Source of the DNA: an uncultured Dictyoglomota bacterium
Lineage (GTDB): Bacteria > Dictyoglomota > Dictyoglomia > Dictyoglomales > Dictyoglomaceae
Assembly (NCBI GenBank): GCA_964654465.1
Contig: CAZZIO010000040.1
Location: forward strand, 190,037 to 254,036
Reading direction: 5' to 3'
DNA length: 64,000 nucleotides
Part shown: positions 57,501 to 60,500 of the stretch, one piece after another
Layout of the letters: the number at the start of each line of letters is the position of its first letter
Position numbering within the stretch: position 1 is the stretch's first letter
Position numbers: made by a program

Positions 57501-60500
57501 TCTTTTTATCTACCTGTAAAGATTAAATTCGGTATAGGACTCTGGGAAAGAATTCCCGAAGAGTCCTATGCTTTGGGAGCCAAAAAGATACTCTTAGTAA
57601 CTGGTAGAAAGCATCTAAAAAATACAGGAATTTTAGATAAATTACTTCATCTTTTTAATAATTATCAAGTAGAAGTAATCGTTTTTGATGATGTACCTCC
57701 AGAACCACCATATTATGTAGTAGATAATGGTGCTGAGATTGCAAAATCAAAAGAAGTAGATTTAATTGTAGGAATAGGAGGTGGAAGTGTCTTAGATGTT
57801 GCAAAAGCTATAGCTTTAAAGATAAATCTTCCAGGTTCTATATGGGACTATATAGGTGAAAAAAGTGAAAAAATCTCTACACAAAGTATACCATGTATAT
57901 TAGTCCCTACTACAGCGGGTACAGCAAGCGAAGTAACTAAGGTATCAGTACTTATTAACCCAGACACTAAAGAAAAACTAAGTATAAGGCATGATAGTTT
58001 ATATGGAAAAATTGCTATTGTGGATCCTTTACTTACTTTATCCATGCCAAGAGAAAATACTATCTATAGTGGCTTAGATGCCTTTATTCATTCATTAGAA
58101 TCTTTTTTATCACTAAATAGCAACATTTTAACTGATCCCATTTCCATTAATTCTCTTAAAATTGTTTATAAATATTTGCCAAGAGTAATTGAAAATTTAG
58201 AAAGAATAGACTTAAGGGAAAAATTACTTTATGCAAGCACTATTAGTGGAGTGGCTTTCTCTCAAACAGGACTTGGAGGCATTCATGCCTTAGCCCATCC
58301 TATAGGAGTATATGCTAATATACCTCATGGTCTTGCATGTGCTCTCGTTACCCTTCCAATGCTAGAATATAATTTGGATATTTTACCAAGAGAGAAAATC
58401 TCAACCCTTGGCAGAGCTGTAGGGGTCTATTCTTTGAGATCTGCAAAGGAGAAAATTTTGAAAAAAATAGAAGAATTTTTAAAAACTTTAGATATAAAAT
58501 TAGGGCTCAGAAATTACGGAATATCAAAGGAACAGCTATCAATTATTGCTAAAGAAGCTCCAAAGACAGGCTCTTACAAAACGAATCCTCGAGCCCTAAA
58601 CTATGAAGTAATCTTAGAAATTCTCAAAAAAGCTTGGTAAATCCTATTTTAAGCTAACTATATCTAAATCAGGTTTAAATTTTACTATTGAATTAGAAGG
58701 GAAATACCCTCTTACAGAAGCATTAGGATAAACTAGTACTTTTTTACCTAATATGGTGCCAGGATTTAAAACAGAATTACAACCTGTCTCACTCTCATCT
58801 CCTACAATTGCTCCCAATTTCCTTAATCCGGTATCATAAACTTCACCATTTACACTTATTCTTACTGTAGAGGAAGGTCCCATCTTTAAATTAGATATTT
58901 TTGTCCCAGCCCCTAAATTAACCTTATGACCTAAAATACTATCACCAACATAATTGAAATGAGGGGCTTTTGCACCATTTAGTAATATGCTATTTTTAAC
59001 CTCTGTACAATGCCCCACTACACAATTATCCCCTATATAAACATTTCCTCGTATATATGCACCTTGTCTTATCTCACAATTTTTTCCTATATAGGCAGGA
59101 CCCTTTATATATACAAATGGTTCTACGACTGTACCTTCACCTATATATACTGGACCCTCTATGAAAACTCCTCCCTGAATAATACCCTCTATATCTGGCT
59201 TTATATACTTTTCAAGAAAAGTTTTTAGATTTTTTAAGGCTTCCCAAACATATTCAACATTTTTAAAGAGATCTTCCTCTATTCCATCAATTTCAAAAAA
59301 ATCTTCTGGTGCCCACATAGACATATCCTCCTTTACCATCTTAATATATTCATAACTTCTATAATATCTGATGGCTTAGATGCAAGAAAATGAACACCAT
59401 TAACCAACTTACTTTCTTTAATTTTACTACATAAATCTACACAAAGTTCAATACCAATATTTTTTATGTTATCTTTTCTCTCAAATTTTTCTAAAATATA
59501 CCTTGGTATTTTTATGCCTGGCACATTATTTATCATATAGTCAATCATCTCCAAGGATTTAAAAATAGTAACTCCAACGATTATCTTTACCCCACTACCT
59601 ACCTTTTCTCTTACCCTTTCCATTATTGATAGATCAAATACCAATTGGGTTTGAAAAAACTCAGCTCCTGCTAAAATTTTCTTTTTCATCTTTAAAATCT
59701 CAATATCTAAAGGAGTAAGATTAGGATTAAAGACTGCTCCCAAGAAAAAATTAGGACTTTTATTTAATTTTTTTCCTGCAAAATCTTCCCCTGATTCTAA
59801 CATCTTTGCTATCTTTAATATATTTACTGCGTCTAAATCAAACACAGGTTTAGCACTTTTAGATATACCAGTGGTTGTATAATCCCCCGTTAAAACTAAA
59901 ACATTTTTTATACCAAGGGTATACGCACTTAATAGCTCACCCGAAATGGCAACCCTATTCCTATCCCTGGCTGTAATTTGAAAGATAGGCTCTATTCCCT
60001 CTTTTAACAACAAATAGCTTCCTACTAAAGAGGTGATTCTAACACCTACATTTTGGAAATCAGTAACATTTACTGCATCTACTCTATCTTTTAACATTAA
60101 AGTCTTGCTAACAAAAGAAGAAACATCCACTCCTCTCGGAGGACTGACTTCTGCTGTAATTATGAATTTTCCCGATTTTAATTTTTCCTCAAAATTCATT
60201 CTTGTAAAAGTATTTTACTAAAATCTTTTGGTGGAACAATCTTGAGGAAATCTTCTTCAGATATTCTATTTGTTCTAAACAAAATTACCCAAGGACATAA
60301 TCTCTCGTAAACCTCACATATCCCATCTTCTGCTCCACCACAAGGTCCATTTCTCATCTTTTTAGGACATAACTTTTCCATACAAAGATTCCCTGTATAA
60401 TAAATCCAACATTCTCCACAAGCAGAACATAATCTTGCAAAACTACCCAATGATCTACCAGGTTCGATCTTCAGGGTATTAGTAGCTGGGATAACAGGTT

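Follow-up and report, generated by a model that had tools for sequence, protein, structure and literature searches.

A 224-residue left-handed beta-helix protein, encoded in the 64,000-nucleotide stretch of Dictyoglomota DNA analysed here (the window), very probably completes UDP-GlcNAc synthesis beside a shortened GlmU, in a pathway that would run through four separate enzymes. In the mechanism we propose, GlmS and GlmM would supply glucosamine-1-phosphate. The stand-alone protein (P0001), as a homotrimer with sites between its subunits, would then transfer acetyl from acetyl-CoA to glucosamine-1-phosphate with H120 as the catalytic base, and the 304-residue GlmU of the prs locus (P0002) would afterwards add UMP. 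Rather than being the half that P0002 lost, P0001 would belong to a clade of stand-alone archaeal-type domains that is widespread among bacteria. Having such a domain may have made the canonical C-half dispensable, and this half would then have been lost several times independently. The acetyltransferase reading is supported because the stand-alone gene and the canonical C-half are reciprocally distributed, because homologues have glmM and glmS neighbours, and because related domains are fused to other uridyltransferases.

The gene of P0001, delimited by reading the window for open frames, is uninterrupted (Table 1), and its start at the ATG at 59318 is preferred over the ATG at 59339 because AAGGAGG lies 8 nt ahead of the former. 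Homologues carry the names 'glucose-1-phosphate thymidylyltransferase' or 'NDP-sugar pyrophosphorylase family protein' in databases. These labels, the first of which the genome-wide survey's note had already questioned, cannot be right because the nucleotidyltransferase domain is absent: a Pfam search of P0001 returned hexapeptide and left-handed beta-helix repeats only and no NTP_transferase domain, and the match to the RmlA-type model TIGR01208 is confined to the beta-helix end (47.8 bits, cut-off 320.25). The top NCBIfam match is the archaeal GlmU model TIGR03992 (Arch_glmU), with residues 18-202 on model positions 211-393 (E 3.2e-60; 204 bits, against a whole-protein cut-off of 292.1), and the match to the canonical model TIGR01173 is far weaker (E 1.4e-16). 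The closest PDB entry by sequence is ST0452 (5z09, E 8.6e-32), as that note had reported for the ST0452 C-domain; with a numbering offset of +188 this alignment pairs H120, Y123 and N143 with ST0452 H308, Y311 and N331. Profile comparison of the two proteins gave E 3.7e-42. The predicted fold (pLDDT 95) resembles ST0452 in Foldseek searches at TM 0.76-0.80 and canonical GlmU at 0.59 or less, and places a short helical cap where ST0452 has its nucleotidyltransferase domain. P0001 is the sole carrier of the GlmU C-domain motif in the source genome (G000), the other beta-helix proteins of which match LpxA, LpxD, CysE and gamma-carbonic anhydrase or are a NeuD-like enzyme and a mannose-1-P guanylyltransferase/mutase fusion.

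Table 1. Features of the acetyltransferase gene and its surroundings, in window coordinates.
Feature	Position	Strand	Remark
Stand-alone ST0452-type left-handed beta-helix acetyltransferase, P0001, 224 aa	58644..59318	-	predicted glucosamine-1-phosphate N-acetyltransferase
AAGGAGG ribosome-binding site	59327..59333	-	8 nt 5' of ATG at 59318; overlaps metF stop codon
Active-site segment R90-K167 (R90, E106, K108, H120, Y123, N134, N143, K167)	58818..59051	-	residue conservation
23-residue loop between N143 and K167	58821..58889	-	loop-length comparison across domain types
metF-type MTHFR gene	59333..60199	-	directly upstream of P0001 gene; order kept in 11/11 Dictyoglomota
DUF5981/MTHFR C-terminal gene, folD-like, fhs, YfcE-type phosphodiesterase	60196..63813	-	upstream
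Iron-containing alcohol dehydrogenase gene	57489..58640	+	convergent with acetyltransferase gene in 11/11 Dictyoglomota

The position of the gene offers a different explanation, namely that P0001, whose gene closes the fhs-folD-metF run, serves folate or one-carbon metabolism. Its place after metF is kept in all 11 Dictyoglomota genomes with the ribosome-binding site on the metF stop, and it is a counterpoint to our reading that the Dictyoglomota gene sits among folate genes and not among glm genes. However, an MTHFR neighbour occurs in 0 of 76 non-Dictyoglomota loci, neighbours elsewhere are lineage-dependent, and the active site is conserved and of GlmU type; we regard a role in folate metabolism as extremely improbable. 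On the other side of the gene, window positions 49075-57488 hold genes identified by eye as an SbcD/SbcC-like pair and as a homocitrate-synthase/LeuCD-like run, and galU lies at 53122-53988. One 4.9-kb contig from RNA run X1 (0.09 of words) spans both convergent genes at uniform depth; because both genes are covered at one depth, the reads may be DNA and are uninformative on transcription. A promoter and terminator scan gave 22 sites against 22.4 in shuffled sequences, and thus no excess.

The partner enzyme is encoded outside the window (G000:C15:54649-55563, minus strand). P0002 covers positions 2-296 of the 452 of TIGR01173, its stop codon falls 2 nt ahead of prs, and it ends ahead of the catalytic His (position 363 in L147). 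The genome-wide survey's note had stated that Dictyoglomota have no full-length GlmU, that the N-half ends just before prs, that the stand-alone gene is general in the phylum and that no second C-domain exists, and each of these statements held. A single chain of about 450 residues with both canonical GlmU domains occurs in 0 of 11 Dictyoglomota genomes. A short GlmU of 302-323 aa followed by prs is present in 10 of the 11, which are all those with a match; the other, G001, is 86% complete and gave no match to GlmU-N. The stand-alone gene is found in 11 of 11 (71-100% identity), and no other GlmU C-half was detected in the 10 relatives (TIGR01173, E<=1e-10) or in G000. An assembly artefact as the source of the short GlmU is ruled out by the recurrence of the stop and then prs in 10 genomes, two of them single-contig. 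P0002 retains R16, K23, Q70, G75, T76, D100, G137, E152 and N224, which we take to be the active-site motif positions of the uridyltransferase; these motifs are intact in 44-46 of 46 truncated GlmUs and in 11 of 11 full-length rows. Truncated GlmUs end at 243-354 aa, all before the acetyltransferase site. Most retain two to four beta-helix coils (302-354 aa), and six (L173, L174, L175, L176, L203 and L204) stop at 243-248 aa with the whole stub gone, so the beta-helix stub is not always needed.

The source genome needs the pathway, which is otherwise complete. MurA, LpxA, LpxC, LpxD and GlmS score above their cut-offs, GlmM falls just below its own (443 bits against 447.55), and the intact glmS and glmM genes are adjacent on contig C34. 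At G000:C15:13500-18500 (L207), lpxD, lpxC and lpxA exceed their cut-offs, together with fabZ-like and lpxB-like genes recognized by eye. The window itself encodes, at 43574-44584 on the plus strand, a SIS-only protein that resembles the isomerase half of GlmS (best matches GlmS and NagB-II, both under cut-off). G006 (L211:5968-6984) and G008 (L044) encode an extra 339-aa nucleotidyltransferase with a short beta-helix, closest to mannose-1-phosphate guanylyltransferase though under cut-off. No NagU-type enzyme was found in the 11 Dictyoglomota genomes with a model that matched 16 of 50 other genomes.

GlcNAc-1-P could also be made in another way, by a GNAT acting on glucosamine-6-phosphate or by GlcNAc salvage as proposed for Rickettsia and Capnocytophaga, which would reduce the beta-helix protein to a bystander. 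Uridyltransferase-only GlmUs have indeed been linked to salvage in the portions of the literature available to us (PMC5615194, PMC4358021), and two of the four GNATs of G000 have no confident assignment. Yet GlmS and GlmM are intact and adjacent, and among the four PF00583 proteins of G000, none of which lies near glm genes, one RimI and one PRK07757 N-acetyltransferase exceed their cut-offs. The APH-family kinase of a Bacillota genome described below (G294), used as a single query, had no match in G000, and a bystander would leave the distribution pattern unexplained. We consider this explanation very unlikely, and return to P0001 as the acetyltransferase.

Segment R90-N143 of P0001 lines up with E. 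coli GlmU 333-386, a numbering taken from an equal-length range (profile 92-146 = 1hv9 333-387). The E. coli equivalents in this segment presumably have roles in binding glucosamine-1-phosphate, and K108 we take to occupy the position of E. coli K351. Across 56 diverse stand-alone rows, R90, E106, H120 and N143 are conserved in all 56, Y123 and K167 in 55, and K108 in 46. The claim that H120, Y123 and N143 are kept was borne out in 112 of 112 close rows. It did not survive as a mark of archaeal type: the same His, Tyr and Asn occur in 12 of 12 canonical GlmU C-domains, and because they are invariant there too, they mark reaction type and not archaeal type. What does differ is the loop between N143 and K167, which measures 13-29 aa in 65 rows of the stand-alone clade and either 18 or 22 aa in every one of the 32 fused rows of archaeal type, against 5 aa for its equivalent in 12 of 12 canonical rows.

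A homotrimer model of P0001 with CoA scored 0.96 (best control 0.00). On this scale 20 of 30 solved one-chain pairs and 1 of 23 single chains attain the pass mark, and resemblance to known trimer structures probably helped P0001 to do so. The runs share 98% or more of their contacts, pLDDT is at least 93, and H120 in the model touches E106 and Y123 of the neighbouring subunit. The trimer is needed for acetyl transfer and not for uridyl transfer (PMC10087520), and engineered halves of E. coli GlmU function apart according to the accessible text of PMC4358021.

The reciprocal distribution of the stand-alone gene and the canonical C-half is the strongest evidence for the acetyltransferase reading. 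The carrier set comprised 50 of the 76 non-Dictyoglomota loci, the 26 omitted being mostly further Riflebacteria and Trueperaceae. In this set of 50, a full GlmU is encoded by one genome and the N-half alone by 32; 1 gives a weak partial match and 16 have none. A real stop was present in each of the 31 N-half-only loci that were read (of 32), and 17 of the 31 lie directly before prs. Among the 16 carriers with no GlmU N-half, 9 have a NagU-like PF01704 match, and no candidate uridyltransferase partner was identified in the other 7. The gene arrangement is not specific to Dictyoglomota.

Three taxon samples, in the choice of which the trait played no part apart from the centre genome, gave the same pattern. 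Among 71 Deinococcota genomes, all 3 with a short GlmU carry the stand-alone gene, against 0 of 68 with a full one (Fisher p 2e-5, the sampled genomes being related); the three cases, all previously known carriers, probably represent one event. The class of G058 (109 genomes) has the gene in 6 of 6 genomes that lack the C-half versus 0 of 103 that have it (p 5e-10, again among related genomes). Five of these six positives are new and were not preselected, in two of the 103 an assembly gap interrupts a full gene, and the short GlmUs end in real stops before prs. Among 121 Bacillota genomes, also related, the corresponding figures are 4 of 4 versus 3 of 117 (p 4e-6). Over all samples the gene is thus present in 13 of 13 genomes without the C-half and in 0/68, 0/103 and 3/117 of those with it, counts that overstate independence given kinship within samples and four genomes that sit in two samples. 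The three Bacillota exceptions are a Cohnella, where the homologue belongs to a different gene cluster, G248, in which both genes are intact, and G345, which has a frameshifted copy. This copy (L218:1468-2285) lies between glmM and nagB in a genome that also has a full GlmU; either the gene is redundant and decaying or the assembly is in error.

Gene neighbours in other bacteria mostly vary by lineage. The genome-wide survey's note had counted homologues beside glmS or glmM in 7 of 80 loci; we find either gene within 6 kb in 3 of the 80 top loci (L069, L101 and L108), although the two sets of 80 may differ. This low count speaks against our reading, as do the two intact genes of G248 and the incomplete conservation of K108. 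In L101 glmS lies upstream, and in L108 glmM lies downstream, of the stand-alone gene. Neither gene was seen beside the 5 new loci of the class of G058, which have short flanks, and one or both lie near 2 of the 6 new loci of the Bacillota sample, where the orders are glmM-gene-nagB-glmS (L219) and glmM-gene-nagB (L218). The former is the order in G294.

Fusions provide a further association with uridyltransferases. The majority of the best 120 longer homologues are archaeal-type bifunctional enzymes, but others join the beta-helix acetyltransferase domain to a NagU-like uridyltransferase domain (P0181, 618 aa) or to an NTP_transf_3 domain (P0125, P0130 and P0138, 548-561 aa). Judged from their predicted domains, both kinds of fusion represent new bifunctional architectures. 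In G294, where neither a GlmU N-half nor NagU was found, a free NTP_transf_3 gene is followed by genes for an APH-family kinase and a nagB-like protein (L235:1225-3145), and its product is a candidate for a third family of GlcNAc-1-P uridyltransferases.

The family is not single-purpose, as the copy in Cohnella panacarvi, whose genome also has a full GlmU, illustrates. That homologue lies in a cluster (L126:2563-9992) with genes for a DHQ-synthase-like cyclase, a ROK kinase, a class III aminotransferase, a Gfo/Idh/MocA dehydrogenase and a TIM-barrel isomerase, a cluster that we take to be of the aminocyclitol type; by its gene content the homologue looks recruited for an N-acetylated aminocyclitol. 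A literature search found no named aminocyclitol cluster matching this locus. P0001 might likewise act mainly on another amino-sugar phosphate (galactosamine-1-phosphate, glucosamine-6-phosphate or an aminocyclitol phosphate), its link to UDP-GlcNAc being indirect or secondary, and the aminocyclitol-like setting in Cohnella is in keeping with this. So are data on ST0452, which also acetylates GalN-1-P: in the available text of the source, H308 is essential for acetylation of both GlcN-1-P and GalN-1-P (PMC4909775) and Y311 and N331 are important for the GalN-1-P activity only (PMC4909775, review), and the counterparts Y123 and N143 are conserved in 55 and 56 of 56 rows. The same Tyr and Asn are however equally invariant in canonical GlmU (12/12), and a side activity would leave unexplained the presence of the gene in 13 of 13 genomes without the C-half and its near absence elsewhere. 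We judge a different main substrate to be unlikely. Dual GlcN/GalN activity of P0001 is compatible with the explanation that fits best, in which P0001 would acetylate glucosamine-1-phosphate for UDP-GlcNAc.

Phylogenetic trees indicate that the two halves have different ancestries. In a tree of 109 acetyltransferase domains, a single clade (SH-aLRT 100) unites the stand-alone proteins with four secondary fusions; it sits among archaeal-type domains, apart from 12 canonical C-halves. Support in these trees is quick SH-aLRT with no bootstrap, and the fused rows were picked for closeness to P0001. Identity of P0001 is 40-48% to 32 fused archaeal-type domains and 21-26% to canonical C-halves, and the tail after G187 is shorter than in canonical C-halves (20-43 versus 45-67 residues). 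Fission of one canonical GlmU is ruled out by the trees, the loop length and the 21-26% identity. Because the stand-alone proteins form one bacterial clade, we infer domain replacement instead of fission. The archaeal-type assignment of the genome-wide survey's note is thus supported, and its acetyltransferase function is made probable by the distribution, neighbours and fusions, but its description of a 'split GlmU' is not upheld, the halves differing in ancestry. The case is better described as an essential domain that a distant homologue has replaced repeatedly than as a split gene. A special recent archaeal transfer into Dictyoglomota is not supported either, the nearest relatives being other stand-alone proteins of the clade.

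GlmU was truncated repeatedly. The 46 truncated sequences in a 57-member tree of N-halves require 8 state changes (bootstrap range 7-9; strong branches impose 3), and a single inherited truncation is rejected (p-AU 0.00425, with the caveat of long branches and uneven composition). Those of Trueperaceae cluster with full-length enzymes from Deinococcota. Within the class of G058, the truncated GlmUs fall into four lineages interleaved with full-length ones, while the six acetyltransferases form one clade (99), a pattern which suggests that the gene was shared first and the C-half lost later several times.

Taken more broadly, the data lead us to favour, with some reservation, the existence of a second, hitherto unrecognised standard bacterial GlcN-1-P acetyltransferase: one clade of thousands of mislabelled stand-alone archaeal-type proteins that would have taken the place of the GlmU C-half in three or more, and probably seven or more, independent lineages and would partner three unrelated uridyltransferases (the GlmU N-half, NagU and the NTP_transf_3 family), to which it is sometimes fused. 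If so, the clade would account for the 'missing GlmU' reported from Chlamydia and other bacteria, and it might open a direct route from GalN-1-P to UDP-GalNAc. Peptidoglycan and lipid A synthesis both draw on UDP-GlcNAc, and GlmU is regarded as near-universal; where it is missing or short, genome surveys conclude that the pathway is lost or that the organism depends on a host, and missing GlmU halves are likewise taken as loss of the pathway (PMC7725333, PMC5615194). A 2026 preprint calls for an 'unidentified acetyltransferase' where GlmU is missing or short. The clade of P0001 offers a specific, assayable candidate, would correct a widespread misannotation, and would illustrate cleanly how a distant homologue can repeatedly displace one domain of an essential enzyme. 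Neither the chemistry nor, in part, the split arrangement is new to the literature; the apparent novelty lies in which clade does the replacing, in how nearly exact its reciprocal distribution is, and in the several partners it has. A search of the open-access literature returned no report of the stand-alone archaeal-type clade, of the Dictyoglomota case or of an assay of any member.

Compared with known systems, P0001 shares the C-terminal beta-helix of archaeal-type bifunctional GlmU (ST0452 of Sulfolobus tokodaii; PDB 5Z09, 5Z0A, 2GGO; TIGR03992), including the H308/Y311/N331 positions, the long N143-K167 loop and the short tail, but has no N-terminal nucleotidyltransferase domain on the same chain, and the stand-alone proteins form a clade of their own. 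With respect to canonical bifunctional GlmU (TIGR01173; E. coli, S. aureus, M. tuberculosis), P0002 is the N-half in its usual place before prs, while P0001 has the acetyltransferase residues R90, E106, H120, Y123, N143 and K167 in common with it and differs in its longer loop and shorter tail. As the genome-wide survey's note had anticipated, truncated GlmU halves of other taxa are partly in print. In their available text, Fong et al. (bioRxiv 10.64898/2026.06.23.733835) describe NagU-bearing bacteria that have only the N-half of GlmU, only the C-half, or both halves on separate genes, the last as in Wujia chipingensis; in the PVC group, they report, C-half-only proteins work with NagU. That survey, as its text sets out, covers NagU-bearing species only, whereas Dictyoglomota have no NagU, and it treats the pieces as truncated GlmU, the string 'archae' being absent from the main text; the sections of it that were consulted contain no reciprocal-distribution test, domain tree or assay, and its figures and supplements may list members of this family. 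Chlamydiota proteins fall in the clade of P0001 in the 109-domain tree, and for this reason the C-half proteins of Fong et al. probably belong to it. PMC4358021 also reports a uridyltransferase that is monofunctional, and genera in which the beta-helix domain stands alone. The GlmUs of Rickettsia (PMC5615194) and Capnocytophaga canimorsus (PMC4358021) likewise lack the acetyltransferase half in the portions of these papers available to us; however, those bacteria are described as obtaining amino sugars from the host, whereas the source genome encodes GlmS, GlmM and a candidate acetyltransferase.
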